Positions 7,693 through 52,071 of a DNA stretch of 64,000 bases are shown here, piece after piece; within the stretch, counting starts at the first letter, position 1; each line of letters begins with the position of its first letter. The DNA is from a virus. A model generated the notes under the pieces. That model was not told the origin of the DNA, searched no databases, and saw only the letters and a list, made by a program, of their open reading frames with translations. A program made the translations under genes and the position numbers. The stretch spans positions 7,725-71,724 of the IMG/VR virus record IMGVR_UViG_3300014039_000031. One strand, 5' to 3'.

Positions 7693-8040
7693 AAACCTTT
7701 ATACCCCTGCTTTCGCAGTATTTGTTAGGGAGTAGACTATACAATCAACTTTCGTTGTCTCCATTATAGTCGTTGAGCGTTTCTCTGTTCTAGAGACTTC
7801 GATGCGTCTGGTTACCCAATCCTTAGTGATTTTACCATACCTTGGTCGCTAACCTTGCCGCCAATACATCCCTGTACTGGTTTGGTTACTAAGGCTCTAA
7901 GGGCTTTCCCGCAATTTAGGAGATTTATAGAGCGCTTTATAATTTTTATATTAAATAAAATTTTTCTTTTTTTTCGAGTTAAAAAGGAATCAAAATATTC
8001 ACCTCCAATCTTTTAATTCCTTTTTAACTTGTTTAGGTTG
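7693..8040 (-). mobile_element. Intervening sequence A in dnaE, ORF-less, contains repeat copy B (7758..7929)
   Basis: Exon 1 stops at ...YGICESQER* and exon 2 resumes MMLVQIP (DnaE YGIxxYQEQVMQIAQ); no ORF. Confidence 0.5.
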
Positions 8041-23697: not shown

Positions 23698-25572
23698 CTA
23701 GAGCTTAGTCCCTCGTCCACCCTTATTTGCTATTTTACCTGTAAAGTTTTGCGGCTCAGTTATTGTCATGGATACAATCTTATCATCATCGTCTAGCTTA
23801 ATGCCGCACATGCCGCCAGACCTGATACTACTTGCTCGCACACTATCTGCCTTAAAACTAATCTCTCTCTTGGAAGAGGTAAGTGTTACGATACACCCAT
23901 TAGTCTCTTGGATAGATACTATATCCACATCAGTTTTAGCGGCAACGATTCCACGCTTATTGCGCACACCTTTAGCAAATTGTTTTCCTTCACACTTTTT
24001 AACTTTGCCATCAGCCATTGCAAACATCAGATAAGGCTTGCTATCACGGAAATAGCTATCGTGCGCATAGATAATTTTTTCATCCTTATCTAAATTAATG
24101 ATAGCGCCAATTGCTGTACCCTTATCCTTTGGGCCGCACTCTTTAATATCCGCAGGTGAAATACGGTAAAACTTACCCTTATTTGAGAATAGAGCAATCA
24201 TCCTATCTTCTGCAATGCTAAATGCAGCGAAACCGTTATTTTTGAATTTAGAAGGAGAAACCTTTTGTAGATAACCAAGAGGATTAAAAACAATTACGAA
24301 GTTCTTAATTTCCTTTGAAGCAGAAGACTTGGCTTTCTTTGTCTTTGTAATCTCCTTTTGGACTACTTTAGTCCGACGAGGAGTACTATATTTTTTATCC
24401 ATATCTTTCAGCTTTTTTAAAAATACTTTATCAAGTTCTTTTTTATCATTTAAAATTAAATCGCATTTTGCAATAATTTCGCTCTTTTCTGTTAGCTCTT
24501 TTTCAATTGACTGCGTATCCAGTTTAGTCAGCTTCATTAACGGCATTGAAAGAATTGATTTGATTTGCTTATCTGTAAAGTTAAACTCATTTTTAAGCCC
24601 ATTTGCCGCATTAGCTTTATCATTTGAACCGCGAATAATCTCAATGATTATATCAATATTCGTTAAGGCAAATTTTAATCCCTCTAAGATTTCTTTTCTT
24701 TGAGCCGCGAGATTTTTATCATATTCAGCTTCGCGTTTAAGGCACTCAAAACAATGAGACAAGTATTCATCAACTGTCTGCTGTAGATTTAATAAAACAG
24801 GAGTTTTACTGATAATGCCATTCTGATTGACATTATACTGTGACCTTAAAGGTGTTGACTGAAATAGCTGCTGCAATACTTTTTCTGCCGCATACCCTCG
24901 TTGACATTCTACAACTAAAGCAATGCCATTCTTATCACTCTTATTATATACATCTTTAATACCAATTAAATCTTCTGATTCGATTAGCTCTTTAATCTTT
25001 ACAATTAAAGGTTCAATGTATACTTGATATGGCATTTCAGTAAAAGTAATTTCGTTGCCGTCAATAGTATATGTAGCTTCTACAATTACTTTACCTTTTC
25101 CAGTTTCATTGATTGAAGATAATTCATCCTTATTGACGATTGTACAGCCAGTAGGAAAATCAGGGTAGTATTCCTCTGCTTCAAATTTACCAGTTTTAAC
25201 GTACTTACCGATTAAGTTAATAGTTTCTTTAAGGTTGTGCGGCAACCAATTATTTGCAATTGAAACACCGATACCTTGAGCGCCATTGACAAGAAGTCTA
25301 GGAAAATATGATGGTAATACTACTGGCATATATTCATCTTCGCTGAAATTCAAAACCATTGGAACTGTATTTTTTTCAATTCCATTTAACATGAATTCTT
25401 CTGTGATTTTAGAAAGACGCGCTTCTGTATATCGGTCCGCAGCAATTGCGTCTCCGCCCAAAATTACGTTACCATTTGCACCATGGAAATCAACCTCTGG
25501 TACATTGTTTGTAAAAGGCTGAGACATGCGTGCGAAAGTTTCATAAATCGCTTGAGTCAATTTTGTTATCAT
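23698..25572 (-). CDS. Type II topoisomerase A subunit (GyrA/ParC-like) exon 2
   Basis: AIYETFARMSQPF... continues GyrA after HPHGD. Confidence 0.8.
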   Translation of the reverse strand: MITKLTQAIYETFARMSQPFTNNVPEVDFHGANGNVILGGDAIAADRYTEARLSKITEEFMLNGIEKNTVPMVLNFSEDEYMPVVLPSYFPRLLVNGAQGIGVSIANNWLPHNLKETINLIGKYVKTGKFEAEEYYPDFPTGCTIVNKDELSSINETGKGKVIVEATYTIDGNEITFTEMPYQVYIEPLIVKIKELIESEDLIGIKDVYNKSDKNGIALVVECQRGYAAEKVLQQLFQSTPLRSQYNVNQNGIISKTPVLLNLQQTVDEYLSHCFECLKREAEYDKNLAAQRKEILEGLKFALTNIDIIIEIIRGSNDKANAANGLKNEFNFTDKQIKSILSMPLMKLTKLDTQSIEKELTEKSEIIAKCDLILNDKKELDKVFLKKLKDMDKKYSTPRRTKVVQKEITKTKKAKSSASKEIKNFVIVFNPLGYLQKVSPSKFKNNGFAAFSIAEDRMIALFSNKGKFYRISPADIKECGPKDKGTAIGAIINLDKDEKIIYAHDSYFRDSKPYLMFAMADGKVKKCEGKQFAKGVRNKRGIVAAKTDVDIVSIQETNGCIVTLTSSKREISFKADSVRASSIRSGGMCGIKLDDDDKIVSMTITEPQNFTGKIANKGGRGTKL

Positions 25573-26926
25573 AAAGGCTTTTTATCCTTTATTTCTTATA
25601 GTTTCCTATAAGTTCGGCATATCTTTTCTACTTAATAATTTAAGTAGCCGCTGACTCTTGGAAGAATTATATTCTGTAATTACAGTTTCATCTTCTATGC
25701 TCTGCCCCTGACTAATATTTTATTACTAGCCTTCGGTTCGGATTAGCATATTCAATATTAATTTAATATTAAACTTAGCCTTCCCGCTTAATTCAGCAGT
25801 TTTAGCACGGCACGCGCTAAATCATATTTTCTATCTAAATAAATAGGACAATTTTCTGGATATAGCAGTTCTAATACGTTTTTGGTTCCCTCTCGGCAAG
25901 TTGTTTGCCAATAATATAAATCTGAACCAATACTTTCGCTATGAGCTTTTGGCTTTGCATGTTCCATTTTATGAGGAAAATACTCTTTTAAAACGCTGCT
26001 AATATAATTACAAACTTCTTCTGAACCAACTACACCCATTCTTAAATCTCTTGTAGTGGGTTTTCTAATCCATCCATCGCCGTCAATAATACCTCTAATA
26101 TAATTTAATTCAAGCTCTCTATCATTAAAAATAAATGGCTTTTCTTTTAGGCTTTTTCTTGGAGTAATATTATATTTTTGTAAGTCTTTACATAAATCAG
26201 TACTGCAAACATCAATAACCCAACAAAGATTATTCCTGTCATAAGCACCGCCATAGCAAGGTTTAATAACTTCATTTAATTTTTCTTTTGGATATTGTAA
26301 AAACTTAGCAAATTTATATACGTGTTCTTTGTCTTTATCTCCAAGACGAACCGTAACGTTATATGAAATATAATCTTTTGAATTCCCTTTGATTTTATTT
26401 TCAATAATACAACCATCTGCTAATAAGAAACCAAGCCAATATGCCATTTCTGGAGTTGGTTCTTCTCTAAAAATATCTCTTTTAAAATTGTATTTATATC
26501 TAACTGTATCCTCGTATCCAAGAACCTCTAGCCAATGACTAAAAACTCCATTTTGAGATATATTATATTTATCTCTAATTTCTTTTTTAGTAATATTAGG
26601 ATTATTTATATATTCTTGAATTGCTTCCCATTCTTTTGGTTCAAAATAATAGCAATATCCATTGTCTTCTTTTGGAAATACTAATTCTTTATACTTATCT
26701 TTCCAAGTTAATTTACAAAAACTATGCCTATCTATTTTAAACATATCTGCTACTTTTGATTTTGACAAACCTTTTTCATTCTCTTCCATATAAAACTTAG
26801 TTGCTTCATAGGTTGATACTTTTACTGCTTTCATATTTATATCCTTTCTTATATTATTTATCGCTATATAATATAAAAAATAGATATACAAAATAATAGA
26901 GATATGCCCATAAAAAATATAATCTA
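25573..26926 (-). mobile_element. Intervening sequence in topo A gene carrying LAGLIDADG homing endonuclease (inserted at HPHGD codons)
   Basis: Exon 1 ends ...WWPHG, exon 2 resumes AIYETF; stops flank. Confidence 0.55.
25788..26891 (-). CDS. LAGLIDADG homing endonuclease (double motif)
   Basis: YWLGFLLADGCI and IRGIIDGDGWI. Confidence 0.8.
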   Translation of the reverse strand: MYIYFLYYIAINNIRKDINMKAVKVSTYEATKFYMEENEKGLSKSKVADMFKIDRHSFCKLTWKDKYKELVFPKEDNGYCYYFEPKEWEAIQEYINNPNITKKEIRDKYNISQNGVFSHWLEVLGYEDTVRYKYNFKRDIFREEPTPEMAYWLGFLLADGCIIENKIKGNSKDYISYNVTVRLGDKDKEHVYKFAKFLQYPKEKLNEVIKPCYGGAYDRNNLCWVIDVCSTDLCKDLQKYNITPRKSLKEKPFIFNDRELELNYIRGIIDGDGWIRKPTTRDLRMGVVGSEEVCNYISSVLKEYFPHKMEHAKPKAHSESIGSDLYYWQTTCREGTKNVLELLYPENCPIYLDRKYDLARAVLKLLN

Positions 26927-27160
26927 TTAGTTAATTCTACCGTGTGGCCACCATAATGCTGCTACACCGCCATCAATCTTAGCAGACTTTACGTGTGGTT
27001 TGTCATTGGTATACTTCTTAGTATACATTTCCCAAAGAATACATCTTTGGCCTGGTTTCAAACCGTCTTTCACGTTTGGGAACGCGCGATTGGCATTTAC
27101 GTCATAAGAACTATCAACAAAATTCTGTTGAACTACGTCAATAATGTCTGCTTTATCCAA
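26927..27160 (-). CDS. Type II topoisomerase A subunit exon 1
   Basis: RAFPNVKDGLKPGQRCILW...HG = GyrA N-terminus. Confidence 0.7.
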   Translation of the reverse strand: MDKADIIDVVQQNFVDSSYDVNANRAFPNVKDGLKPGQRCILWEMYTKKYTNDKPHVKSAKIDGGVAALWWPHGRIN

Positions 27161-29063
27161 TATTTGCCTCCTCTAAATGTTGTTCAAGAAATTTTACTCG
27201 TGGTTCTACTTTCTTTCCATATAGGTCATTAAACATATCTGCTGTTTTTTCTATATCAAACACCGTAAGCAATTTCATATTTCTTGTTTCTGGCTCTAAC
27301 AAGCAGTATGCAAGTTCATTTGCGTCTTGTTCGCCTAATCCTTTCATCCTTGTTATTGCTTTTATTTTACTAGAATATTTTTCTTTATATTTTTGTAAAG
27401 CAATATCATTCTTCAAATAAATATATTCATTCTTTTTAGTAATAACTCTAAACAATGGTGGCTCGGAACAATAGACGTGACCATTAATAATCAATTCTGG
27501 ACAAATATACCAAAATATATTTAACATAAGATTTGAAATCGCTTCGCCATCAAAATCTGCATCTGTTGCTGTAATAATTTTCCCATAACGAAGAGATTTT
27601 TTATCATATTTACACTTTGCTGTTTTTGGGTCAAACTCTAATCCAAGAGCTTGAATTAGATTATTGATTTCTTGATTCTTAATAATAGTCTCTGGTTTTG
27701 CCTTTAGTACAGAAAGCATTTTTCCTCTAACTCCATAAACAGCTTGGAACTTAGAATCTCTACCAGCAACCATATTTGAAGATGCACTTCGACCCTCTGT
27801 TAAATATAATTCACAGATAGAACGGTCTTTAGACCAACAATCAGACAAACTTGTTGGCATTTTTAAAAAGTTATTACCACGCTTTTTATTATTCTTAACC
27901 GCTGCGCGAGCTTTCTTCGCTGCTTCTGCCGCACGTTTAGCCACAATGGCTTTCTCAAGAATGGCTTTTGCATCTGTTGGATTATTATCTAACCACACTT
28001 CAAGCTGTTCACCAAGAGTAGAAGTAAAAGATGTATCTACATCAATAATATCATCTTTAACTTGCGCGTTATATTTAACGCCTTTACTATCGATATTGCA
28101 TACAAGAATTAATCCTTCTTGAATTGCCGCACCATCTAGATTCTTTTCTTTGTCTTTAAGAAGATTATTTACTCTAGCCCATGAATTAAATACGCGGGTT
28201 AACGTTGATTTAATCCCTGTAATATGCGGCCCAGACGATGTTAAACCATAATTTACATATGAGACAATCTTAGATTGACTACTGGATGTAAAAGTCATGG
28301 CAAGACGAATATTATCCTCATTCATCACAAAATGATTTGAAACAATTTCAGTATCATTGCCACGCTTTTCATCTAACATGTCTTCAATACTATCATGTGC
28401 AATTTCAACACCATTTAAAACAACTTTAAGAGTGGGACAAATGCACGTAATATCATTGAAAAACTTTTTGAAGTGCGCAATAGATGTTTTATCTGTACCA
28501 AAAAATTGTCCATCTGGTAGATACTCTACATATGTACCAGAATGTCCTTTATCAATACCAGAGTTATGTCCAGTAATAATACCATCTTTGAATTCAATCT
28601 GTTCATATTTACCATCACAGACTGTTCGTGCCTTAAGACATTTAGAAAGAAACGTAACTAATTTACTTCCTAATCCGTTAAGGCCAAGACTAGACCCCTC
28701 ATAAACACCATCATCTGTATACTTACCAGAGGTATTCATCGTATCAAAAGCAGCCTGAAATACAGTCTTACCATCATCACGCTTTTGATTCACAAGAAAA
28801 CCTTGTGCATAATCTTGGATTGAACATACACCGGTTTTATCATCAATAGATACTTCAATTACATTACCATGTCCGATATTATGTTCATCTAACGCATTGC
28901 TGAATAGTTCCAACATTAACTGATTTGGAGTAGATGTGTCGCCGCAGTACATTGATGGACGTTTACGCACATGCTCACGTGGAGTTAGTGATTGAATTGA
29001 ATCTTCCGTATAAGAATTGCTTTTTAAGTTACTTCTCAAATTACTCTCCTTTCTTTTATACAA
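27153..29063 (-). CDS. Type II topoisomerase ATPase subunit (GyrB/T4 gp39-like)
   Basis: GHKL ELFSNALDE, TOPRIM ELYLTEGRSASS. Confidence 0.85.
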   Translation of the reverse strand: MYKRKESNLRSNLKSNSYTEDSIQSLTPREHVRKRPSMYCGDTSTPNQLMLELFSNALDEHNIGHGNVIEVSIDDKTGVCSIQDYAQGFLVNQKRDDGKTVFQAAFDTMNTSGKYTDDGVYEGSSLGLNGLGSKLVTFLSKCLKARTVCDGKYEQIEFKDGIITGHNSGIDKGHSGTYVEYLPDGQFFGTDKTSIAHFKKFFNDITCICPTLKVVLNGVEIAHDSIEDMLDEKRGNDTEIVSNHFVMNEDNIRLAMTFTSSSQSKIVSYVNYGLTSSGPHITGIKSTLTRVFNSWARVNNLLKDKEKNLDGAAIQEGLILVCNIDSKGVKYNAQVKDDIIDVDTSFTSTLGEQLEVWLDNNPTDAKAILEKAIVAKRAAEAAKKARAAVKNNKKRGNNFLKMPTSLSDCWSKDRSICELYLTEGRSASSNMVAGRDSKFQAVYGVRGKMLSVLKAKPETIIKNQEINNLIQALGLEFDPKTAKCKYDKKSLRYGKIITATDADFDGEAISNLMLNIFWYICPELIINGHVYCSEPPLFRVITKKNEYIYLKNDIALQKYKEKYSSKIKAITRMKGLGEQDANELAYCLLEPETRNMKLLTVFDIEKTADMFNDLYGKKVEPRVKFLEQHLEEANIG

Positions 29064-29158: not shown

Positions 29159-29581
29159 TTATTTATTTAATTTTTCACGTGTCTTAATCTCATTCTCACA
29201 AAAAATATGAAAATTATTTTTCATATTCTGATACCTCTTTTGCTCTCGCCTATATTGTTCATTAATCATCTTTGCTTCACGGCAAGCAACATTGAAGGCA
29301 TCCATACCATCCGCCGCATTCATTTCACCAAGAGCAGATACAATATGATTGACTCCCTCAGCTCGTCCCTTCATAACCTTTAGACGCTCTGCGGCCATAG
29401 CCAAACGATTCTTATAATCCGCAATTTCCCAACCAATCCACTTATTGGCATTTTTCTTGTCCTCTTGGTCTGGTGCCGCATAAGAAGTAAACATTCCCCA
29501 TTTAGACGAACGAGTTACAGTTGCAACTTTAGTATCATCATCCCAAGAGCAATCAATAATTCGAGAGTGAGCCATTTGCAA
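29159..29581 (-). CDS. Hypothetical protein
   Basis: ORF. Confidence 0.4.
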   Translation of the reverse strand: MQMAHSRIIDCSWDDDTKVATVTRSSKWGMFTSYAAPDQEDKKNANKWIGWEIADYKNRLAMAAERLKVMKGRAEGVNHIVSALGEMNAADGMDAFNVACREAKMINEQYRREQKRYQNMKNNFHIFCENEIKTREKLNK

Positions 29582-30440
29582 TTTCCCTTTCTGTATATTT
29601 TGTCATAATATTAACTAAAAAATTATCTAAAAAGTCATTCGCGGCAATATTTTCTTTAGGTACACCAAAAGTAAAGCTAGGTTTCTCACTTTCAGCATCT
29701 TCAATAATAGCTTTCATGTTATGCACATATTCATCACAACGTGCTTTTGCTTCTTCTGGTGTTAAGGAAATCCTATAACGCTTAATATCCATCATTTCAT
29801 CTCGTACTTTATGAGAGTTAACGCGAATAGCTTTACTGAAAGGAACGCCTGAGCAATATTTAAAAATGAAATTATATAATCGAATAATATGCTGCAACTC
29901 TTTTGCCACATATCCATGCTTTTCAATCAATTCATGGTTAGCAGGAGAATCATGGCAGATTTTAGATGCTTTTTCACGAGCCATTCCAAGAGAAGAAGCA
30001 AGAACCTTATGCGGGTTAATGTTGGCAATTTCATCAACTTTAGAACAAAGAAGGTTCCATTCATTTTTATACACAGGGTTTACATAAACGTAATCTGTGC
30101 ATAAGATTTCAAGGAAATTAATATTGGCCTTGCGGAAAATGCGAAAATAGTCACGAATATCTTTTAATGTACAATGCTCATTATTGGCTAAAACTTCAAC
30201 TTTGTTAATAGATTTGCGGCCAAGGAACAAATCATCAAGTTTTGGGAATACAAGCATTTTTGTATCAACATCAGACGATTCATCAAAAAGACCATAATTC
30301 ATAGAGCCATTTGCCGCACAGACGAACATTTCCACTCCATCATATTTATGAGTCTCTTGGACTTCTTTTACATGAGCTTCAACACGTTTCTGAATGTCCC
30401 AATCATCTTTATACATATAATTCTCCTTTCTTTTAGACAA
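29553..30440 (-). CDS. Nucleotidyltransferase-fold protein (Pol-beta-like NTase)
   Basis: GS...DxD: CAANGSMNYGLFDESSDVDTK. Confidence 0.45.
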   Translation of the reverse strand: MSKRKENYMYKDDWDIQKRVEAHVKEVQETHKYDGVEMFVCAANGSMNYGLFDESSDVDTKMLVFPKLDDLFLGRKSINKVEVLANNEHCTLKDIRDYFRIFRKANINFLEILCTDYVYVNPVYKNEWNLLCSKVDEIANINPHKVLASSLGMAREKASKICHDSPANHELIEKHGYVAKELQHIIRLYNFIFKYCSGVPFSKAIRVNSHKVRDEMMDIKRYRISLTPEEAKARCDEYVHNMKAIIEDAESEKPSFTFGVPKENIAANDFLDNFLVNIMTKYTEREIANGSLSNY

Positions 30441-30513: not shown

Positions 30514-31950
30514 TTAGATTGTATACTTTTCCTCGATATAATCAACCAACTCTCCGCCATCTTCAACGTACTTAAGCATCTTAAATACATTGTCGTTGAG
30601 CGCGGTCATTAGATGCATATCAGGATTGTTCGAATTCACAATCTGAGTATGGTAATTTCCAAGGTCAAAGCTATAGAGAGTCGTGCGGCCATAGTTAGCG
30701 CAATACTCGTTATAAGAATACATTGCCTTATCATATCCCGCAGTAGACCAAAAATATGAACGCTTATCCATTACCTGCATATCAGATACAACAAAAATGC
30801 GGTCATAATTCTTATTGCGAATCATACCGAAAGCCGGAGCAATATCAGTACCATATCCGCAATGGTCATTATCACACATTTCACGAATAATCTGGAAAGG
30901 ACCGGAAGCCTTAGCAAACGTCTTCGTCTTTGCATCGTTACCGAACTTCACAAAGTCACAGTTCCCATTGATATATAGGGCTGCTGCGTAGCAAGCCCCA
31001 ACTTCCTTGATGGAAAGAGAAGACTTGTCGCCATACATATCATCCATGGAGCCAGAAACGTCAAGCATGATAACAGAAGTTCCATCCAACTCAGGCATAT
31101 TGCCACAAGCAATACGGAAAGCGGTATCAAGAGCTGTAATCACTGCCATATTCTGAACACTGAGATTTCGATAGGCCGTATAAATCTGATAAGGGAACAC
31201 AAGAGACTTGTGGATAGAGACTTCATTGATAATCTGGTCAACAAGATTCTTCTTGACCCAAACGTCATCAACGTCACTGTGTAGAATGTTGTTGAGATTG
31301 CGGATAAGGGCAAGATAACCAAGTTTATGTCCCTCTACAAGTTCCTTCCAACTAGTGGTACCAGTAGAAATACCAACTTCCCAAGTCTCAGGGGCAGCAA
31401 GAGTACCAGCCTTATACTTATCAATCGTCTCGCTATGAGCATGAGTAATATTGATAAGGTCATACATATTATACTGCTTACCGTTCATCTTATACTTAGC
31501 AATCTGATAATCACCAAGAGAAGAAAGATAATCAGCACAGCCACGAACCAGCGCATGAGAACGCCTGCCGCCAAGCATATCTACAGCTGCAAAAATCTCA
31601 GCTGGATCATCCGCGCGATGCATGAAATTCTTATAGAACTCACGCTTCTGCTCAAACTTCTCAAAATTCAGGCGAGCTGCGACAAGCTGAGAAGCCGAAC
31701 GCATACCAAGCTCATTACGCGCAAACTTAGCGCACTTGGCCGCAAACACAGGGCCATACTGCTCAATGATAGCATCAGTCAGCTTGATAAAACGCTCCTG
31801 TTGCACATCTGCGGATTCATAGAAGGTATTACACATCTTAGACGAGAAAATGAAATTCATCCACTCCTCGACAGGATTCTTTACATAATTAAGCCCACCC
31901 TCAAAAGAACGCTCACGAGAGGGCTTCACATTTTCATTAAACTTTGCCAT
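30514..31950 (-). CDS. rsr: Ro60/Rsr ortholog (TROVE + vWA domains)
   Basis: vWA MIDAS DVSGSM...GYGTD...FVVSD; YLALIRNLNN ~ Ro60 LLRNLGKM; SLVFPYQI ~ Ro60 HPFHIL; FEGGLNY ~ SEGGTYY. Confidence 0.65.
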   Translation of the reverse strand: MAKFNENVKPSRERSFEGGLNYVKNPVEEWMNFIFSSKMCNTFYESADVQQERFIKLTDAIIEQYGPVFAAKCAKFARNELGMRSASQLVAARLNFEKFEQKREFYKNFMHRADDPAEIFAAVDMLGGRRSHALVRGCADYLSSLGDYQIAKYKMNGKQYNMYDLINITHAHSETIDKYKAGTLAAPETWEVGISTGTTSWKELVEGHKLGYLALIRNLNNILHSDVDDVWVKKNLVDQIINEVSIHKSLVFPYQIYTAYRNLSVQNMAVITALDTAFRIACGNMPELDGTSVIMLDVSGSMDDMYGDKSSLSIKEVGACYAAALYINGNCDFVKFGNDAKTKTFAKASGPFQIIREMCDNDHCGYGTDIAPAFGMIRNKNYDRIFVVSDMQVMDKRSYFWSTAGYDKAMYSYNEYCANYGRTTLYSFDLGNYHTQIVNSNNPDMHLMTALNDNVFKMLKYVEDGGELVDYIEEKYTI

Positions 31951-32083
31951 AACTACTTCTCTTTCTCTTGGAAGGAAATATACTTATAGGAATTAAATAC
32001 TGGTATCTATGATTTGAACAAAAGCACATTTAAGAAGAAAGGATACCTTTATATTTAATTCCTATAGGCATGTTTCCACACCT

Positions 32084-32224
32084 AAAATAAAATAAAATGA
32101 GGAGATGTTAAAAACAGTACACAAAAGATACCGACCTACCCGACGCAATGTCTGCGAAGGACGGAGTTGAACCGCCTTTCCGCATTTTCAAGGTGAAGTA
32201 ACTGTTTTTCTATCACTCATTTTG
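32084..32224 (-). ncRNA. Y-RNA-like ncRNA upstream of rsr: long bulged terminal stem + tRNA-like acceptor/T-arm minihelix
   Basis: Own -35/-10 promoter; 5' strand aaaatgagtgatagaaaaacagttac pairs with 3' gtactgtttttaacatctcctcatttt; tgcggaa-a-GGCGG TTCAACT CCGTC-cttcgca; U-run end. Confidence 0.5.
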
Positions 32225-34816: not shown

Positions 34817-35755
34817 TTAGTTGTTACTATTGGTCAGAATATATTCACGAATAGCCGCTTGCGCCAAACCTTTAATCTTTGCAAGATTAACACTGGCAAC
34901 CTTCTTCTTACGATAAAAGTCCCAAAAATTCTCTTCCATAAGCTCGTTCAAAACTTTTTGCATACACATACCGAAGAATTTACCATTGCGGCAATCAATT
35001 TCATCCATATCGAGAACGATAAGAACTTTATTAACTTCCTTTTCGACAAAAGCAGGCGTACAAAACTTATCTACAAACTCTTTTTCAGTATCATTTTGGT
35101 TGACATTGGTCTTCTTAGTGGTTTTATTATGATGCCATTCATCGCGTACAATTTTAGCAACTTGTGGATTTCCCCACGGGTCACGAAGAACTGGATAAGT
35201 TTTAATAACAATACCTTCACCAATAATACCAGAAGGAAGATTAAAAGTACAAGAATCTACATACTTATCAACATCATCCCAAGTCATATTATCAATGCGG
35301 GCAATGATAGGAACGCAACGATGATAAATTTTACTTACTACTGGATACCATACATCATAATCAATATATTCACCGCTGTCAGTATCAAAAACATCAAAGA
35401 TAAAGAAACCACCTTCAATATACTGTTTAATGCTACCGACAAACTTGCGGCCATCCACTCCGCCAAGCCATTCACCATAAATAATATAGCTAGGATTGTC
35501 AAGCAACCAATCCTTTAAAGCATTGATTTCAGTGTCATTAGAATTTGTAATATAGTATGCAAATCCAGCATTATCCTTCTCAATAGAAATCTCACGGGTA
35601 CGAGAGCCACACGCAATTTTGCCCTCATCATCTACCCAAATGCTGGAATTGCTTCCGTCCATTTTCGGCTGAATTAAAACCGACTTACAAATGAAACCCT
35701 GAACTTCATTACGAGTAGAGCGTTCAAGATGAATATACTTGTTGAAATGTGACAT
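34817..35755 (-). CDS. ATP-dependent RNA ligase, Rnl1-like (nucleotidyltransferase motif I KMDGS, motif IV EGIVIK)
   Basis: IQPKMDGSNSS; GEGIVIKTY. Confidence 0.55.
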   Translation of the reverse strand: MSHFNKYIHLERSTRNEVQGFICKSVLIQPKMDGSNSSIWVDDEGKIACGSRTREISIEKDNAGFAYYITNSNDTEINALKDWLLDNPSYIIYGEWLGGVDGRKFVGSIKQYIEGGFFIFDVFDTDSGEYIDYDVWYPVVSKIYHRCVPIIARIDNMTWDDVDKYVDSCTFNLPSGIIGEGIVIKTYPVLRDPWGNPQVAKIVRDEWHHNKTTKKTNVNQNDTEKEFVDKFCTPAFVEKEVNKVLIVLDMDEIDCRNGKFFGMCMQKVLNELMEENFWDFYRKKKVASVNLAKIKGLAQAAIREYILTNSNN

Positions 35756-36694: not shown

Positions 36695-37216
36695 ATGAAG
36701 CACACGTTAATTATGATGGCAGGCCCTGCGAGTTCAGGAAAATCTGTATTTGCAAAAATCATTAAAGATTCACATGATGATTGCGTTGTAGTTTCATATA
36801 AACAGATGGCAAAAGCAGCACTGGTCGCAAAAGAACCGCAACATTATGTAGATAAGCGATATATCGAAGTATTAAATAATATGCTTGAAACACATGAATA
36901 TGTAATTGCTGATAATTACAATATCAATGCAAATGAACGCAAAAAAATATTTGACAATATAAATATTGATAAATATAATATTATTTGTGTTTGGGTGGAA
37001 ACGCCTCTTAATGTTGCATTGAAGCGAAATGCACAACTAGATGAAAAGTGGCGAAGGTCGGAAGACTCTATAAAGCAAATGTATAAAATTAAAGTATCGC
37101 CGCAAGAACAAGAGCCTTTTAAAAAAGTAATTTTCATTTCAGAGCAAATGAATTATGCTATTGGAACAGATACAATGGAAATTCAAAATATTTTAGATAC
37201 TCTTAAGGCTCTATAG
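36695..37216 (+). CDS. P-loop kinase, polynucleotide kinase (Pnk kinase-domain)-like
   Basis: GPASSGKS; VIADNYNINANERKK and VALKRN resemble T4 Pnk kinase domain. Confidence 0.5.
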   Translation: MKHTLIMMAGPASSGKSVFAKIIKDSHDDCVVVSYKQMAKAALVAKEPQHYVDKRYIEVLNNMLETHEYVIADNYNINANERKKIFDNINIDKYNIICVWVETPLNVALKRNAQLDEKWRRSEDSIKQMYKIKVSPQEQEPFKKVIFISEQMNYAIGTDTMEIQNILDTLKAL

Positions 37217-39149: not shown

Positions 39150-39719
39150 ATGATTACTCAATATTCTCATGGTATCAATACAGAAGCAAATCCAAGCAAC
39201 AATGTAATCGATATTTACAAAAAGTGGAGTGCGGAAGAAGTGCGGGCTAGCCTTCAACCAAATCGTACTTCACTTGTAAATATTTGTCTCAATCTTGACC
39301 ATGGATTTAACGTTGGTTCTATTATTCGCGCATCAAATTGTTTTCTTGCTAAGGAGACTTATGTGGTTGGCCGCAAACGCTTTGACGCTCGTGGGGGTGT
39401 TGGATCCAAAAAATACGAACGCGTATATCACGCAGATACATTAGATGAAGTCATTGAAGTTCTGCATCCTCTTGGATATACCATTTTTGCTGTAGATAAT
39501 GTAGAAGAATATAATCCGCAGAATATTTTTGATGCTGATATTCCAATGAAATCTGCTTTTGTATATGGAAGTGAGGGCGATGGTTTGCCAAAAGATGCTA
39601 TTGACAAATGTGATGAAATGGTATATATTAGGCAATATGGAAGTATTCGCTCACTAAATGTGGCACAAGCTGCCGCATGTTGTATGATGGAATATTCTAG
39701 ACGTTATCAAATGAGGTAG
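39150..39719 (+). CDS. SpoU/TrmH-family RNA 2'-O-methyltransferase
   Basis: NVGSIIRAS, VYGSEGDGL, SLNVAQAAACCMMEY motifs. Confidence 0.75.
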   Translation: MITQYSHGINTEANPSNNVIDIYKKWSAEEVRASLQPNRTSLVNICLNLDHGFNVGSIIRASNCFLAKETYVVGRKRFDARGGVGSKKYERVYHADTLDEVIEVLHPLGYTIFAVDNVEEYNPQNIFDADIPMKSAFVYGSEGDGLPKDAIDKCDEMVYIRQYGSIRSLNVAQAAACCMMEYSRRYQMR

Positions 39720-41236: not shown

Positions 41237-42172
41237 ATGAATGAAGTAGATATGCTCCGCAATGATTCTCTTGTGCGGGAAAAGGATTTGGGAAACGGAA
41301 TCTCGTCTTTCAATTTTTCCAATAAGTGCTTTTGGGATAAGAAGTGGACTACGGAGTCAATCAAGGCTCGCGGATTATTCTGTGATGTTAAAAATAACAA
41401 TGTTGTGGCACGTTCTTATAATAAGTTTTTCAATATTGGAGAGCGTCCTGAGACTGAAATGCTGAATCTTCGTACTACTTTTGCATATCCTGTGCAGGCA
41501 TATGTGAAGTATAATGGTTTTTTGGCAATCGTCTCAGCAGATAAGGATAATCCCGATAAGTTGTTCATCGCATCCAAGAGCACTAATGAAGGCCCGTTTG
41601 CGGGATACATTAAGAACATTATTAACTCTATGCTGAGCGAAGACACGCAAAAGGATTTTGCAAACACCTTGCATAATCTTAATATCTCTGCTGTGTTTGA
41701 GTGTATTGACCCAGCGCATGACACGCATATTGTAGAATATTTCAGTCCGCATTTAGTTATGCTTGATTGTATTTATAATTCCTTTGAATATAAGCACATG
41801 TCATATGAGAATATGAGAGAATTTGCATGTAAGTTTGGTTTTTTGTTTAAGGTTCGTTTTTCCATTTTAACAGATTGGGAAGATTTTACAAGTTTTATTG
41901 ATTGGCATAAGGATGATAATGGGATTGAAGGATTTGTGTTTGAAGATGCTAATGGGTTCATGGTAAAGTATAAAACTTTATGGTATCGTTACTGGAAGCA
42001 GGTGCGTGGCGTTTTGCAGCAGGTCTGGAACGGACGTGATATTGATTCAATCAAGAATATCAATAACAAGATTAAGCCAGAGCACAAGCAGCCGCTTCTT
42101 GATTTCGTAGCTTCATGCCGCAATCGTGATGCGTGTCCATCAGTAATTGAATTCCGCAACTCTTTATCTTAA
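41237..42172 (+). CDS. Ligase/nucleotidyltransferase-superfamily protein (RNA ligase-like; motif I KYNG, motif IV-V EGFVFEDANGFMVKYK)
   Basis: Motif inspection. Confidence 0.4.
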   Translation: MNEVDMLRNDSLVREKDLGNGISSFNFSNKCFWDKKWTTESIKARGLFCDVKNNNVVARSYNKFFNIGERPETEMLNLRTTFAYPVQAYVKYNGFLAIVSADKDNPDKLFIASKSTNEGPFAGYIKNIINSMLSEDTQKDFANTLHNLNISAVFECIDPAHDTHIVEYFSPHLVMLDCIYNSFEYKHMSYENMREFACKFGFLFKVRFSILTDWEDFTSFIDWHKDDNGIEGFVFEDANGFMVKYKTLWYRYWKQVRGVLQQVWNGRDIDSIKNINNKIKPEHKQPLLDFVASCRNRDACPSVIEFRNSLS

Positions 42173-45730: not shown

Positions 45731-45784
45731 GAGCCTACAGTGTTCCAGAAATATTGTAGGCTCATTTTTCTTTTGGCAAAGCCA
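45731..45784 (+). terminator. Intrinsic terminator (gagcctaca...tgtaggctc + T-run) ~100 nt downstream of promoter: short transcript/attenuator
   Basis: 9-bp stem + attttt ctttt. Confidence 0.55.
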
Positions 45785-46144
45785 GTTTAGTATAACAGTA
45801 ATACATCGCTCTTGTAAAGCGAAGCAGACAGGGCAGCACTGTCAACTGGCTCCAATATTTTAGTATTCTATGAGGATAATATAAAAGGAGATTCGACCAC
45901 TCCAAGCAATGCACTTGTATTATTCTCATAGAGTGCTAACCTTAGACACTCTCCAAGTGATAGTAGAGCGGAATTTGACCCCGTCTGTGCTATCCCAAGT
46001 TATAAGCGATTCGGGCAGTCGCTATACAAATTTGCCCACTTTAGATTATTAGATAGGCTACATAGGGAGTAGCTACCTCATGGAAAAGTGAATATCCACC
46101 ACCTGCCTATCTATTGTATTTAGTGGATAGGAAAGTGTGGATAT
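45785..46144 (+). other. Highly structured ~360-nt noncoding leader of HNH endonuclease gene; start codon region sequestered
   Basis: Many local and long-range complementarities (agataggc/gcctatct; aatatccacca/tgtggatat covering ATG). Confidence 0.45.
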
Positions 46145-46929: not shown

Positions 46930-47318
46930 GTAGTTAACAAAAGGAAAAACACTTCTTTTGAACATAGGGTTCCTAAACCAAAAGAATTAGGTGCGGCTTA
47001 AGGTTTCAGACTACAGATAAAAGAAACTTAGTGATTAAATAAATGATGCGAAAGAACGTCTGAAGAATCACGATTAAAATATGGTTTGCGGTTATCCTAA
47101 AACCACACCTAAAATTTTTCTTGACTTCTAGTTGAGAATAATGTACAATATATTTAGAAGAAAAGGGGAAAAAGGATAGTCAACAGTACCATCAACAAAC
47201 CAGTGACCCTGCGGCGAATATTAATGAGCCAATACCCATAAGATGTAATATCGAGTACGCTGTTAGGTTGATTAAATTTTTCTTCCAAATAAGTTTAAAC
47301 GCCAAGAGAAAGAGGTAA

Positions 47319-47429
47319 AATGGCACAGTCTATCGAGTCTATGGAGCAGCGTTATCAGATGCTTATTAACCGAAAGGGTAAGAATTCAGAAAATGTAGGC
47401 ATTATGCGCAAACTTCGCCGCAAGATTAA
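47319..47429 (+). CDS. Small ORF (36 aa) with strong RBS
   Basis: agagaaagaggtaaaatgg. Confidence 0.3.
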
Positions 47430-47466
47430 CAAGGCTAAGTCAGGTATCATTCTTTCTTAATTTTAT

Positions 47467-47600
47467 ATGCGTGATAGGGATTCAGTTACTTCATATCAAT
47501 AGCAGAGATATAGGCTGTCGGTTCGAATCCGACCATCTACGGATGTAGCTCAACAGGTAGAGCGATGTCATTTTATAGTCTGAATCCAAGATTTCCGCAT
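47467..47600 (+). ncRNA. Y-like ncRNA paralog with T-arm and D-arm-like tRNA mimic
   Basis: 5' atgcgtgatagggattcagttacttc; closing helix atgcg/ccgcat and ggattcag/ctgaatcc; GTCGG TTCGAAT CCGAC T-arm; GCTC aacaggta GAGC D-arm-like. Confidence 0.45.
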
Positions 47601-47608
47601 ATTTTTTC

Positions 47609-47637
47609 TTGACTTTTGGTTATATATATTATATAAT
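47609..47637 (+). promoter_or_regulatory. Early promoter
   Basis: ttttttcttgacttttggttatatatattatataat. Confidence 0.55.
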
Positions 47638-47660
47638 ATATTTAGTTCAAAGGAGATAAC

Positions 47661-47807
47661 ATGAGATACTGCATTTGCCGTGAAAAAACTACGCATTGCC
47701 TGTCTATTCGAGTTGATACTGACTGCTCGCCTGTACGCTTTGATGTACTTTCCATTCATGACACTTTCGAAGAGGCAGATGCGGCACTTCGTTTTTATCT
47801 TGATTAA
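47661..47807 (+). CDS. Small Cys-containing protein (48 aa)
   Basis: RBS aaaggag + ATG; not in ORF track (<60 aa). Confidence 0.4.
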   Translation: MRYCICREKTTHCLSIRVDTDCSPVRFDVLSIHDTFEEADAALRFYLD

Positions 47808-47900
47808 TCTATTTTATAGATAGATTAATGTAAACATTCCGCAGCCAGAGCCAATCTGGACCGCCGCATACTTGAAAGGAAGCGGGTTTGAATGTTTTAT

Positions 47901-47973
47901 GCGCCCTTAGCTTAGTTGGTAAAGCAGTGGACTCTTAATCCAAAGACCGTCAGTTCGAATCTGACAGGACGCA
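47901..47973 (+). tRNA. tRNA-Lys (anticodon CTT)
   Basis: Manual cloverleaf; GTCAG-TTCGAAT-CTGAC T arm. Confidence 0.75.
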
Positions 47974-47988
47974 CCTATTTTATTTCGC

Positions 47989-48061
47989 TCGTCTGTAGTT
48001 CAGCTGGTAGAACATTTGGCTGTTAACCAAAATGTCGTAGGTTCGAGTCCTACCGGACGAG
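47989..48061 (+). tRNA. tRNA-Asn (anticodon GTT)
   Basis: Close to E. coli tRNA-Asn architecture; TTTGG-CTGTTAA-CCAAA. Confidence 0.8.
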
Positions 48062-48291
48062 CAAAATAAAATATTTGACAAAATCATTTCGGTAGTATAT
48101 AATATAAATATAAAATAACAAGTCTTCAAGAATCTTAACTCATACGGTTTGGCCGCCGATAGAGGAACTACTAAGGACGGGACACCTGAATGCTAGCTAA
48201 TACAGGGAGCAGACAGCCAGTATTGTCCTTGATGTAATCGAATGAGCTATCTTGTTGTTTTATATTTATATTATTGGTCGAAAGGTTTCAA

Positions 48292-48495
48292 ATGAAATTA
48301 TATCTGAAACACTATACTAACAAAATTTTATGGTCAGAGCCAAAAGATGATGATGAAGCATATAAAGATATTCAAAATTGGTTAACAGAACATTATCCAA
48401 TTAATCATTATATGCGGCATTGGGTAGATAATGCTGGTGTTCATTGGATTGATTTTGGTTCGCACACAGATTTCTTTTGCATTGAAGGAGAGTAG
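48292..48495 (+). CDS. Hypothetical protein (start MKLYLKH)
   Basis: Promoter at ~48074..48102 and 170-nt structured leader. Confidence 0.45.
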   Translation: MKLYLKHYTNKILWSEPKDDDEAYKDIQNWLTEHYPINHYMRHWVDNAGVHWIDFGSHTDFFCIEGE

Positions 48496-48498
48496 GCA

Positions 48499-48948
48499 AT
48501 GTCTTACAACAAGGAAGAAGATTTGAAGTTGAAATACGCTTATATTCCCGATGATGCGGCAAATGCCCCTGCTTCTAAAAAGAAGAAGCCGTCTCCTAAG
48601 AAAGCCAACCATAAACATAATTATGATAAAAGTATTATCATCAATTATTATGATAAATATACTGGTAAGTGGACCTATTCATATAGGAATATCTGCACTG
48701 TTTGCGGCCGCATTGGTGATTTTAAAGATAAAGATGGAATCATCGCAAAGACTTTCCCGCACATCAGTACTTGTTGGTTTGGTTTTTCCGTTGCTTTTGG
48801 ATATAATGCAGAATTTGAGGAGTTTACCGAGTGGTCAAAAACTTGGTATCCTGTAATTGTTTGGAAAGACTATCAACCTTTATCAGATAAGTTTATTCCT
48901 AACGAGTTTTTTGATGAACTTAAAATCGGAACAGATAAAGTAGATTAA
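48499..48948 (+). CDS. Hypothetical protein with basic N-terminus
   Basis: ORF. Confidence 0.45.
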   Translation: MSYNKEEDLKLKYAYIPDDAANAPASKKKKPSPKKANHKHNYDKSIIINYYDKYTGKWTYSYRNICTVCGRIGDFKDKDGIIAKTFPHISTCWFGFSVAFGYNAEFEEFTEWSKTWYPVIVWKDYQPLSDKFIPNEFFDELKIGTDKVD

Positions 48949-48958
48949 TAATGTGCTT

Positions 48959-49046
48959 CGGGAGTTGATGGAATTGGCATACATAGCGGCCTCAAAAGCC
49001 GTCGGTTATTGTAACCATACGAGTTCGAATCTCGTACTCCCGACCA
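48959..49046 (+). tRNA. tRNA-Leu (anticodon CAA), type II, CCA encoded
   Basis: CGGGAGT/ACTCCCG acceptor, long variable arm ggtta-ttg-taacc, ACGAG-TTCGAAT-CTCGT. Confidence 0.75.
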
Positions 49047-49051
49047 GAACT

Positions 49052-49137
49052 GCTACGGTATCCCATTAAAGACATGGACCGGTCTGTAAAATCGGTACCT
49101 TAAGGTTGACTAGGAGCGTTACCTAGACGTAGCACCA
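49052..49137 (+). tRNA. tRNA-Tyr (anticodon GTA), type II, CCA encoded, atypical T-loop
   Basis: CCGGT-CTGTAAA-ATCGG anticodon arm. Confidence 0.65.
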
Positions 49138-49150
49138 ATTGTACTTTATA

Positions 49151-49244
49151 ATGCGTGACAGAAAATCAGTTACTTCTATTTTAAAAATAAGATATTGGTT
49201 CGATTCCAATTACCGCATAAAAACTGATTTTAGTATTTCCGCAT
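49151..49244 (+). ncRNA. Y-like ncRNA paralog (compact)
   Basis: atgcgtgacagaaaatcagttacttc (22-mer shared with the rsr-linked RNA at 32084..32224); aaaatcagtt/aactgatttt and atgcg/cgcat helices; ATTGG TTCGATT CCAAT T-arm; T-run after. Confidence 0.45.
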
Positions 49245-49677
49245 TTAATTTTTATTCTGGTATGTGATTGAGTTTTAGTTACTTCGAAGATATATATTAT
49301 GTTTTAAATTAATTAAAATTTAAATTAAAAGAACCAGCTTTTACGTCAGACTATAACGGCGTAACAAAAAACTGGTAACTTATACTAAAACTAGTATTTC
49401 CATACCTTCCTCTTTCTCTTGGATAAGTGATTGACCGCATAGTTACTTCATATTTTTGGTATAATATAATTCAGTCTATGTGATATTATTTCCTTATCTT
49501 AAACATTTTGCGTGATTGGTTCAAGAGATACTTCATAAATATTTTATGACATTTTTTTGCTCTCTCTTGGGCATACTTTCCGCTTTAATAGGGCCTTATG
49601 GTCCTATTTTTTTTATTGACTTTATACATACAATATTATATAATATATATAAAGAAAGAGAGAAAGAGGTTTTTTAT

Positions 49678-50217
49678 ATGAGCGTTTGGGTTGTTTCTGA
49701 TACTCATCTAAATCATACCCGCATCATGGAGTATTGTCCTGATACACGTGATTTTTCCTGCGTTGAGGATATGAACGAAGCAATTATCAATAGATGGAAT
49801 GACCGCATTTCCCCCGATGATATAGTCTATCATCTTGGTGATGTTTGTATGGGACAACTTGATACAATCGATAAGTATCTTCCTCGACTAAATGGTCATA
49901 TCACTCTCATTAAGGGAAACCATGATACGAAGGGCCGCATTGCCCGCATCCAAGAGGTTGTCGGTTGGGAAGTCCTCAACATTGAATGTATACACTATAA
50001 TGGTATTAACTTTCTTATGATGCATGAGAAGCCAGAAGACATGCATGGTAATTCTGAGAATGTTATTCTTTACGGTCATGTTCATGACGCTGCGCCGCAT
50101 GGTTTGCAGCCTGATTGGACATATCATGTTGGACTTGATACTAACAATCTTGCTCCTGTAAATCTTCATGATATTTGGATTGATGTCCAAGAGCAGCGAA
50201 TTAAGACTGGTGAATAA
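49678..50217 (+). CDS. Calcineurin-like metallophosphoesterase
   Basis: VVSDTHL, GDV, GNHD motifs. Confidence 0.75.
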   Translation: MSVWVVSDTHLNHTRIMEYCPDTRDFSCVEDMNEAIINRWNDRISPDDIVYHLGDVCMGQLDTIDKYLPRLNGHITLIKGNHDTKGRIARIQEVVGWEVLNIECIHYNGINFLMMHEKPEDMHGNSENVILYGHVHDAAPHGLQPDWTYHVGLDTNNLAPVNLHDIWIDVQEQRIKTGE

Positions 50218-51588: not shown

Positions 51589-52071
51589 ATGGCTACTCTT
51601 TATATTCTCGCAGCTATTCCAGCCGCAGGAAAGACAACTTGGGCGCATGAGCATCATTCTGAGCTTGATGCCAAGATTATCTCGCGCGATAACATTCGTT
51701 TCAACTATATGGCAAATGACCCTGATTTTCTTCCTTCCATGGATTATTTCAAGTATGAGAAGGATGTCGAGCGATGCTTCTATGACCAGATTAATTGGGA
51801 TTTGTGTGTGAATGATATGAACGTCATCGCTGATGCCACTCATATCTCTTGGAAGAGTTTAAAGAAAACCGTTGAGCATTGCGGCAAAAACGCGGACAAG
51901 GTTATTCTTGTATACTTCAATCGTGGTCTTGATATTGCCTTGCCGCAGAACGCGAAGCGTGATGGCGTTGAGCATGTTCCCGAGGAAGTAATCAAGCGTA
52001 TGTGGAAGAACCGCTATCAGCCTGCTCGTGCAAAGGCCGCAGGTCTTGTTGATGAATATATGATTGTGTAG
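51589..52071 (+). CDS. Polynucleotide 5'-kinase (T4 Pnk kinase-domain-like)
   Basis: AIPAAGKTTWA; IISRDNIRF; VPEEVIKRMWKNR align with T4 Pnk N-domain. Confidence 0.6.
   Translation: MATLYILAAIPAAGKTTWAHEHHSELDAKIISRDNIRFNYMANDPDFLPSMDYFKYEKDVERCFYDQINWDLCVNDMNVIADATHISWKSLKKTVEHCGKNADKVILVYFNRGLDIALPQNAKRDGVEHVPEEVIKRMWKNRYQPARAKAAGLVDEYMIV

Follow-up and report, generated by a model that had tools for sequence, protein, structure and literature searches.

Y RNAs dock on the protein Ro60, or Rsr, by a stem formed from their two ends, and a second module serves as a tether for an effector and as a gate to the cavity of the protein (PMC4201824, PMC12135203, bioRxiv 10.1101/312249); in Deinococcus radiodurans, Salmonella and phage phiLo the effector is PNPase (PMC4201824, PMC12135203, bioRxiv 10.1101/312249). 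In the YrlA class this module mimics a tRNA, and the proposal is that its conserved T and D stems bind a further factor (PMC4201824, bioRxiv 10.1101/312249). The motifs YUAY and GNCGAAN0-1G, and the criterion of searching within 4 kb of rsr on the same strand, were set out by Chen et al. 2014 (PMC4201824); in 2014, 22 phages were reported to carry YrlA-like RNAs (PMC4201824), and Ro60-Yrl complexes of phage phiLo have been solved (PMC12135203). YrlA-type Y RNAs are known already from bacteria and some phages. Here we describe Y1, a complete 138-nt RNA of this class on the plus strand at positions 47465-47602 of a 64,000-nt stretch of DNA from an uncultured phage of ~140 kb (IMG/VR record IMGVR_UViG_3300014039_000031, positions 7,725 to 71,724), which is called the window below. 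Judged from its sequence, Y1 belongs to the YrlA class of Y RNAs, as its architecture, motifs and tertiary signature and the linkage of its family to rsr indicate. It is very probably the partner of the Rsr protein encoded by the same phage, with a tRNA-like effector domain; that it is expressed and binds Rsr is what we infer. The unusual features here are that Y1 is unlinked from rsr, that it is embedded in a tRNA operon, and that modules of its kind are present in high copy number in tandem arrays.

Y1 was delimited by a match to the covariance model R1 (described below), a match to the Rfam YrlA family and the minimum free energy (MFE) fold. A first-pass annotation of the window, made from the letters alone, had placed a Y-like RNA with an embedded tRNA mimic at 47467-47600; direct reading of the DNA agrees with its description of the sequence, and the MFE fold contains all the helices and arms that it named, plus one extra, an acceptor-like hairpin. 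Both closing helices are present in the fold, but they reach two bases further each way, so that the RNA spans 47465-47602. In the outer helix, H1, AUAUGCG (47465-47471) pairs with CGCAUAU (47596-47602), and the helix continues past a bulged U (U47472) with G47473-A47474 paired with U47594-C47595, after which comes an internal loop. The inner helix, H2, pairs GGAUUCAG (47478-47485) with CUGAAUCC (47580-47587) and corresponds to the anticodon-stem-like helix of YrlA. According to the family alignment, the 5' strand of H1 with its bulge, the G-A step and the loop UAG (47465-47477) includes the conserved GUGAUAG, the presumed Rsr-docking site; the 3' side (47580-47602) runs from the second strand of H2 through the internal loop AAGAUU and the UC that pairs with GA to the second strand of H1, and holds a conserved AUUUCC. 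After the H2 stem comes single-stranded, invariant UUACUUC (47486-47492), in which the YUAY of YrlA is found as UUAC (47486-47489). Pairing of UUACUUC with GUGAUAG or with the 3' loop was considered and rejected, as its geometry is incompatible with H2.

The apex of Y1 (47517-47563) is a circularly permuted tRNA elbow, in which a T arm, a closed acceptor-like hairpin, a UA linker and a D arm follow one another. It is preceded by GAUAU and a 5-nt equivalent of the variable loop, AGGCU, which ends in U48 (47507-47516, by reading of the sequence). The T arm, GUCGG-UUCGAAU-CCGAC (47517-47533), is supported by Rfam YrlA, the MFE fold and R1; the linker (47546-47547), corresponding to U8 and A9, and the D arm GCUC-AACAGGUA-GAGC (47548-47563), with A14, A15, G18, G19 and A21, form one segment (47546-47563) supported by Rfam YrlA and R1. 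Both arms had been recognized by the first-pass annotation, which had also denied any acceptor pairing. On this last point it was mistaken, since between the two arms, as in YrlA, lies the hairpin CAUC-UACG-GAUG (47534-47545), with 4 bp and a UNCG-type tetraloop, which both Rfam YrlA and R1 align with their acceptor-like stem. Beyond the D arm are the equivalent of G26 and AUGUC (47564-47569), and in the MFE fold of the apical domain AUGUC (47565-47569) pairs with GAUAU (47507-47511); this helix was kept out of R1, since the helix between variable region and D arm is short and irregular across the family. The elbow nucleotides U8, A14, A15, G18, G19, A21, G26, U48, G53, U54, U55, C56, A58 and C61 are all present, and the Levitt pair is A15 (47553)-U48. 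Y1 has no anticodon loop and no CCA end, ARAGORN makes no tRNA call there, and the Rfam tRNA model scores 13.3 bits against a threshold of 29. The permuted arms, the missing anticodon loop and the silence of ARAGORN uphold the earlier statement that the element has no anticodon arm and is not a functional tRNA.

At Rfam's own thresholds no family is reached over Y1. In a permissive search, RF02553 (YrlA) matches 47493-47581 with 31.8 bits (E 0.0023 in 26 kb, 2e-5 in 251 nt), and the alignment keeps the YrlA order of T arm, acceptor-like stem, UAGCUCAA..GGUAGAGC and flanks. The covariance model R1 was built from eight full-length tRNA-like members of distant phages, whose Rsr is ~52-57% identical to that of the window, and includes no window sequence; L120 and L124 were left out of the seed because MAFFT misaligned their 3' ends. 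R1 matches Y1 at 47463-47604 over model positions 1-147 of 147 (86.3 bits, E ~6e-18) and detects exactly six modules in the window, the same with filters on or off. R1 matches covering model positions 36-122 only, along with a few low-scoring full-length ones (e.g. L017:4730-4877), come from places where two tRNAs or tRNA-like genes abut and were rejected as Y RNAs.

The predicted structure covaries across the family. The RNAalifold prediction for 11 full-length members comprises H1, H2 and the three stems of the apex (T, acceptor-like and D), with compensatory changes at 24 of 33 pairs. Across 91 distinct R1 matches, standard pairs occupy 94.8% of cells compared with 64.6% in partner shuffles, and sliding the partners by one to three columns lowers the figure to 37-45%; changes on both sides occur at 31 of the 33 modelled pairs, and the covariation score is 0.39 versus 0.09. 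The 91-member alignment was fitted to R1, a bias in favor of the structure, and the signal is judged to be real because the slid controls and the MAFFT-based result for 11 members agree. H1 and H2 together have compensatory changes at all 17 modelled pairs, with 93-97% of cells paired; this includes all 7 modelled pairs of H2 (97% of cells paired) and every pair of H1, in which the G, the bulged U, the G and the A are near-invariant. UUACUUC is found in 77-81 of about 82 family members. In the apex, covariation is seen at 4 of the 5 T-stem pairs and at all 7 pairs of the acceptor-like stem, which is usually ~7 bp in relatives, and the UA linker and D stem are invariant. The Levitt pair N15/N48 also covaries: among 16 full-length members it is A-U in ten and G-C in four, with two exceptions.

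These data bear directly on the idea that Y1 is a decayed or rearranged tRNA gene, a pseudogene with no function of its own. Its position 300 nt upstream of tRNA-Lys and tRNA-Asn and its tRNA-like T and D arms would suit such an origin. The arm order is nonetheless permuted, both tRNA detectors fail, conservation and covariation extend through the flanking stems and motifs in ~90 distinct sequences, and the locus is identical in a relative whose neighboring phosphoesterase gene is 85% identical, so that a pseudogene is hardly credible.

The first-pass annotation had further noted that a 22-mer at the start of Y1 recurs at two other loci. With three mismatches allowed, the pattern GTGAYAGRNNWNCAGTTACTTC has four matches in the window, at 32195-32216(-), 47471-47492(+), 49155-49176(+) and 49264-49285(+, 2 mismatches), compared with 0.09 expected from dinucleotide shuffles (0 of 100 reached four), and AGTTACTTC alone occurs six times versus 0.41 expected. 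The sharing is real and beyond chance, but the family members in the window number six, not three. The annotation had allowed that the 22-mer could be a promoter or operator acting as DNA, or that its helices might lack support in homologs. One copy does overlap a weak promoter-like match (49155-49182, 9 of 12), and the modules lie close to strong promoters. The 22-mer, however, always has a complementary 3' partner 70-150 nt away that covaries with it, H1 and H2 covary strongly in homologs, every copy is oriented with local transcription, and the motif is non-palindromic, which leaves the operator explanation a negligible probability. The covarying long-range helices, the permuted arms and the failed tRNA detectors together exclude both the operator and the pseudogene, and the earlier proposal of a Y RNA paralog with an embedded tRNA mimic and a candidate Ro60-binding 5' element is supported by the YrlA alignment, R1, covariation and the linkage of the family to rsr.

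The gene rsr (30514-31950, minus strand) encodes a 478-aa phage Ro60/TROVE protein, the presumed partner of Y1, identified by Pfam (TROVE, E 4e-12), PHROG (850, RNA-binding protein, E 7e-31) and a profile of the Rsr family compared with PDB, which finds phage phiLo Ro60 (9KOP/9L5Y, E 4.5e-35) and Xenopus laevis Ro60 (1YVP, E 3.5e-5). One module of the six adjoins it: a paralog with the same docking stem, a T arm and a degenerate D arm (32093-32224, minus strand; R1 58.8 bits, E 1.5e-11) sits 143 nt upstream of rsr and thus within the 4-kb, same-strand range. A sigma-70-type promoter scoring 11 of 12 (32260-32232, minus strand) has its predicted start at about the first H1 base of this paralog. 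The remaining four modules form a plus-strand array: Y2 (49148-49248; R1 45.6 bits, and its fold) has a T arm only; Y3 (49256-49409; R1 28.1 bits, H1/H2 complementarity) has an unrelated apical domain; Y4 (49419-49501; R1 28.9 bits, fold and complementarity) has a short apex; and Y5 (49505-49589; R1 24.4 bits, fold z-score -3.1), with the degenerate motifs GUGAUUG and UACUUC, is followed by a terminator-like hairpin at 49587-49608. Y1 alone among the six carries a complete tRNA-like elbow, the other five having the docking stem with other apical domains, and for this reason Y1 is probably the functional YrlA of the phage.

Between the rsr-adjacent Y RNA and rsr there is also a nearly perfect hairpin of ~30 bp (31958-32082, minus strand) with a pyrimidine-rich loop and UAUAUUUCC at its 3' side (fold z-score -5.0; 0 of 200 shuffles equally stable). 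It resembles the long-hairpin Y RNAs YrlB and Yrn2 and is not detected by R1.

Linkage of the family to rsr was examined in metagenomes with a pattern of GTTACTTC, then a T arm, then TAGCTCA, which matched at least 120 stretches, of which 80 were fetched. An Rsr-like open reading frame (ORF) is present in 49 of the 80; RNA and rsr lie on the same strand in 56 of 56 pairs and are 51-2908 nt apart in 55 of these. The outlier, L177, is a phage-type locus with an Rsr 59% identical and a distance of 7.3 kb. Because matches to the order GUUACUUC-T arm-D arm lie on the same strand as rsr in metagenomes, GUUACUUC, which contains YUAY, is on these sequences a general hallmark of YrlA RNAs. The 5' core of 87 environmental RNAs, among the matches listed, is UGAA in 24, CGUA in 11, UGUA in 11, CGAA in 6, CGCA in 6 and UGAU in 5; 56 of the 87 share their stretch with an Rsr-like ORF, and some read GGUGAUAG exactly. 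Since the core varies in this way, the published consensus is narrower than the family, and the GUGAUAG of the window falls within the variation. Distant phage relatives (Rsr 47-57% identical) carry one to four modules directly upstream of rsr on the same strand, some of them fully tRNA-like, and 46 phosphoesterase loci from other phages, where rsr went undetected, yielded no module apart from L064.

The explanation that we prefer assigns Y1 two modules. The paired ends, comprising H1 with its near-invariant G-(bulged U)-G-A opposite U-C-C, the internal loop, H2 and UUACUUC, would form a docking module that binds the phage's own Ro60 ortholog, Rsr (30514-31950). The permuted elbow (T arm, acceptor-like hairpin, U8-A9, D arm and A15-U48) would form an effector module that, by analogy with YrlA and Yrn1, tethers an effector to Rsr and gates the way into the Rsr cavity. 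This effector could be the PNPase of the host or a protein recognizing the tRNA elbow; no PNPase gene was seen among the scanned window ORFs. The particle may take part in RNA repair or quality control during infection.

Several observations weigh against this explanation. Y1 lies 15.5 kb from rsr and on the opposite strand, whereas the norm for YrlA is within 4 kb on the same strand; that criterion concerns location, not structure. The literal GNCGAAN0-1G motif is absent from the 5' end, which reads GCGUGAUAG. The RF02553 score of 31.8 bits is below the gathering threshold of 69; phage relatives of Y1 score similarly low (31.7-37.7 bits), and the RF02553 consensus is G+C-rich and differs strongly from the A+T-rich lineage of Y1. 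The R1 E-values are rough, having been obtained with a shortened calibration. The acceptor-like stem has a mere 4 bp, and the z-score of the MFE fold, -1.8, is modest. Finally, the syntenic ortholog in a clade with a phosphoesterase ~60% identical keeps H1, H2 and the motifs and has neither T nor D arm; its unrelated apex contains GCGG-UACG-CCGC, and the tRNA-like apex is therefore dispensable or exchangeable at the Y1 locus in relatives.

The relatives in question are known from metagenomes. A DNA search of 47000-50000 against deposited phages returned tRNA matches only, and Rsr has no relative above ~30% identity among 50,697 deposited phage records; without a close deposited relative, there is no annotated reference genome. 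Viral contigs scanned with the single Rsr sequence yielded a near-identical contig only; alignments reached further. Metagenomes hold 894 Rsr homologs, and many of the contigs that carry them measure about 140 kb. The relatives examined comprised 45 loci with an rsr homolog and 78 with a homolog of the phosphoesterase gene just after the array (49678-50217), and a scan of both sets for the motifs plus complementarity gave ~170 modules of the same design. A clade with 70% Rsr identity has no module upstream of rsr, four to six in tandem before the phosphoesterase gene and one further module at the position syntenic with Y1; arrays in relatives reach seven modules. When bacterial genomes were scanned with the motifs, one match was real and the other two were due to chance. 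The real match, L127 (JAEEHF010000031.1), is a 45-kb contig with 13 tRNAs in the rumen Bacillota metagenome-assembled genome Tb.RUG.116, and it carries three or four phage-type Y modules (best 94.4 bits); it is probably a related phage and gives a weak hint to a Bacillota host.

The apices mounted on one and the same docking stem include the permuted elbow of Y1, a T arm alone and unrelated hairpins, and in relatives the apex can be a complete tRNA. Docking stems surround complete tRNAs in canonical order at L113:2110-2242, L104:3627-3766 and L105:3671-3810, where they enclose tRNA-Lys(UUU) (L113:2137-2210) and tRNA-Ile(UAU) (L104:3661-3737, L105:3705-3781); these tRNAs lie just upstream of rsr and start at UUACUUC or a few bases after it. 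A similar arrangement of stem around tRNA is seen on the environmental contig L134 at about 2800-2950, minus strand, and L105 has in addition a YrlA-like RNA (L105:3398-3659, R1 104 bits) whose acceptor-like stem has a loop enlarged by an insertion of ~140 nt. A wider reading of such apices, which rests mainly on the relatives and which we hold to be a minor possibility, is that the docking stem is a portable cassette within tRNA operons, whose 5' half is made of H1, GUGAYNG, H2 and UUACUUC and whose 3' half has UUUCC and the second strand of H1. If so, up to seven adaptors or pre-tRNA handles would couple Ro60 to tRNA maturation, repair or surveillance, or the modules might instead blunt host defenses that attack tRNAs; either would be a hitherto undescribed function of Ro60-Y RNA particles.

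The exchangeable apex also suits a different account, in which the modules have nothing to do with Rsr and act in cis within tRNA and mRNA operons as 3' stabilizers, terminators or processing signals for RNase III or RNase E. All five plus-strand modules are intergenic, each in the gap from an ORF or tRNA to the promoter or terminator that follows; a T-run follows H1 in Y1 and its orthologs, and the apical domain is freely replaceable. Long stems broken by internal loops, such as those of the modules, resemble RNase III sites. On the other hand, termination and processing need neither invariant single-stranded motifs nor a permuted elbow, the same type of RNA adjoins rsr on the same strand in all the environmental pairs and in distant phages, and the modules are absent at related loci of phages without a detected rsr. 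We therefore regard purely cis-acting elements as improbable, while a dual role of Y1, as Y RNA and terminator, is possible.

The context of Y1 suggests how it might be expressed. Directly upstream lies an ORF for a basic protein of 46 aa (47320-47460, plus strand), kept in relatives with synonymous changes. Its product is rich in lysine and arginine (MAQSIESMEQRYQMLINRKGKNSENVGIMRKLRRKINKAKSGIILS), matches no Pfam or PHROG family, and may be an RNA-binding partner. A candidate promoter is found upstream of this ORF (47121-47149) and none between the ORF and Y1, and from this sequence context Y1 is probably made as the 3' part of the ORF transcript, which would end at the T-run immediately after H1 (47603-47607). 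This possible terminator tail is kept in syntenic orthologs; the terminator scan called no terminator at the T-run, and the H1 helix is long-range, with only 3 G-C pairs among its 7. Immediately after Y1 the promoter scan finds the promoter-like site of the next gene, TTGACT-17-TATAAT (47609-47637, plus strand), and the T-run abuts its -35 hexamer; the first-pass annotation had proposed the T-run as a putative UP element of this promoter. The array modules Y2-Y5 come after two ORFs, tRNA-Leu and a tRNA-Tyr-like gene and end at the hairpin 49587-49608; this arrangement suggests, by analogy with Mycobacterium smegmatis, a single processed precursor.

The tRNA-Tyr(GUA)-like gene, located between tRNA-Leu and the Y array (49052-49137, plus strand), is conserved and was missed by both ARAGORN and the Rfam tRNA model. 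Its acceptor stem has 6 bp, its ACCA end is encoded, the anticodon loop reads CUGUAAA and the extra arm is short; the T loop, AGCGUUA, is aberrant, and the D loop lacks GG. When 8 orthologs are folded with RNAalifold, a cloverleaf results in which 11 of 24 pairs, most of them in the anticodon stem, show compensatory changes. Another tRNA (45781-45851, plus strand) scores 44.9 bits with Rfam and has no ARAGORN call.

Eight tRNA genes lie in the region of RNA-repair genes and Y RNAs. Genes of the RNA-repair type are concentrated around the Y RNAs and tRNAs (29553-52071) and encode a RlaP nucleotidyltransferase (29553-30440), an Rnl2-like RNA ligase (34817-35755), a PNK-like kinase (36695-37216), a SpoU methylase (39150-39719), a T4 Rnl1-type RNA ligase (41237-42172), the phosphoesterase noted above, a metallophosphoesterase (49678-50217), and a second PNK-like kinase (51589-52071). 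An association of rsr and Y RNAs with RNA-repair genes is known (bioRxiv 10.1101/312249), and the neighborhood fits the proposed link of Ro60-Y RNA particles to RNA repair. It could also accommodate a tRNA mimic independent of Rsr, serving as a decoy or sponge for host nucleases that target tRNAs or for tRNA-modifying enzymes, its paired ends being just protective: Y1 has every tertiary nucleotide of the tRNA elbow, stands among phage tRNAs and repair genes and is unlinked from rsr. Yet it lacks the anticodon loop, the target of the best-known anticodon nucleases, and the motifs of its docking stem are conserved as much as the elbow and are common to rsr-adjacent copies. A decoy function is moreover compatible with Rsr binding and could be combined with a Y RNA role, so that as a separate explanation it is unnecessary and, in our view, very unlikely.

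Many start codons of this phage group are closely preceded by the motif CCAAGAGA(A/G)AG(A/T)G, for example in the window at 47303-47316, 31953-31966 (minus strand) and in the 49420-49413 region, as well as in relatives; the motif may be an unusual ribosome-binding or leader element. Replication genes seem to be interrupted (4952-10350 and 23698-29063, both on the minus strand): the domains of DNA polymerase III alpha are divided over two ORFs, 8041-10350 and 4952-6265, which a third ORF separates, and a LAGLIDADG-type ORF (25788-26891) lies between gyrA-like and gyrB-like genes, with GIY-YIG and NUMOD1 ORFs nearby.

For annotation, the locus illustrates that Y RNA genes can sit away from rsr in tRNA clusters, where they may be mistaken for tRNA debris, and that one phage can hold six or seven of them. 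The lineage, uncultured phages of ~130-147 kb for which most contigs stem from one large collection, is invisible to current annotation, as Rfam stays below threshold and no close relative is deposited. GUUACUUC together with permuted T and D arms provides a simple and specific signature, which recovers rsr-adjacent YrlA genes across many metagenomes.

Among described systems, the YrlA of Salmonella Typhimurium (RF02553; PDB 6CU1) shares with Y1 the paired ends with a 5' motif, internal loop and then YUAY, the permuted tRNA-like apex (variable region, T arm, closed acceptor-like hairpin, UA, D arm), the tertiary nucleotides of the elbow with a covarying Levitt pair, and the lack of an anticodon loop and CCA. 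Y1 differs in its 5' core (UGAU, not CGAA), in an acceptor-like stem of 4 bp with a UACG loop where Salmonella YrlA has 6 bp, and in being phage-borne, in a tRNA cluster and far from rsr. Mycobacterium smegmatis YrlA and YrlB and the YrlA-like RNAs of mycobacteriophages likewise come as several Y RNAs per genome, with a common precursor (PMC4201824), and combine one full tRNA-like RNA with others that have a T arm only or a long hairpin, as do 49148-49248 and 31958-32082 (minus strand) here; the modules number six in the window phage and up to seven in its relatives, against two in M. smegmatis. The 7-bp acceptor-like stem of M. smegmatis YrlA is cut by RNase P, after which CCA is added (PMC4201824); the 4-bp, tetraloop-capped stem of Y1 is unlikely to be an RNase P substrate.

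Thermus phage phiLo likewise pairs a phage Ro60 with phage Y-like RNAs, Yrl1 and Yrl2, and offers the closest solved structure to the Rsr family of the window. Its Ro60 assembles with host PNPase (PMC12135203), which supports the mechanism assumed for Y1. Yrl1 and Yrl2 are encoded immediately upstream of Ro60, have a CGAA motif and are not described as tRNA-like (PMC12135203), in all of which they differ from Y1. The functional model is Yrn1 in the RYPER (Rsr-Y RNA-PNPase) of D. radiodurans, where the stem docks on Rsr and the second module tethers the exoribonuclease. Yrn1 shares a T-arm-like hairpin with Y1 (PMC4201824, bioRxiv 10.1101/312249) but belongs to the metazoan-like lineage and is only partly tRNA-like. 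In the E. coli phage Bas63 a Ro60-like gene, gp130, adjoins a run of tRNAs, some of which have been speculated to be Y RNAs (PMC11482910), and gp130 is speculated to counter the host defense ppl (PMC11482910, PhageMaP preprint). Whereas no Y RNA has been identified at the sequence level in Bas63, those of the window are defined and distinct from tRNAs, and the locus is thus a concrete, sequence-defined case of Y RNAs among phage tRNAs.

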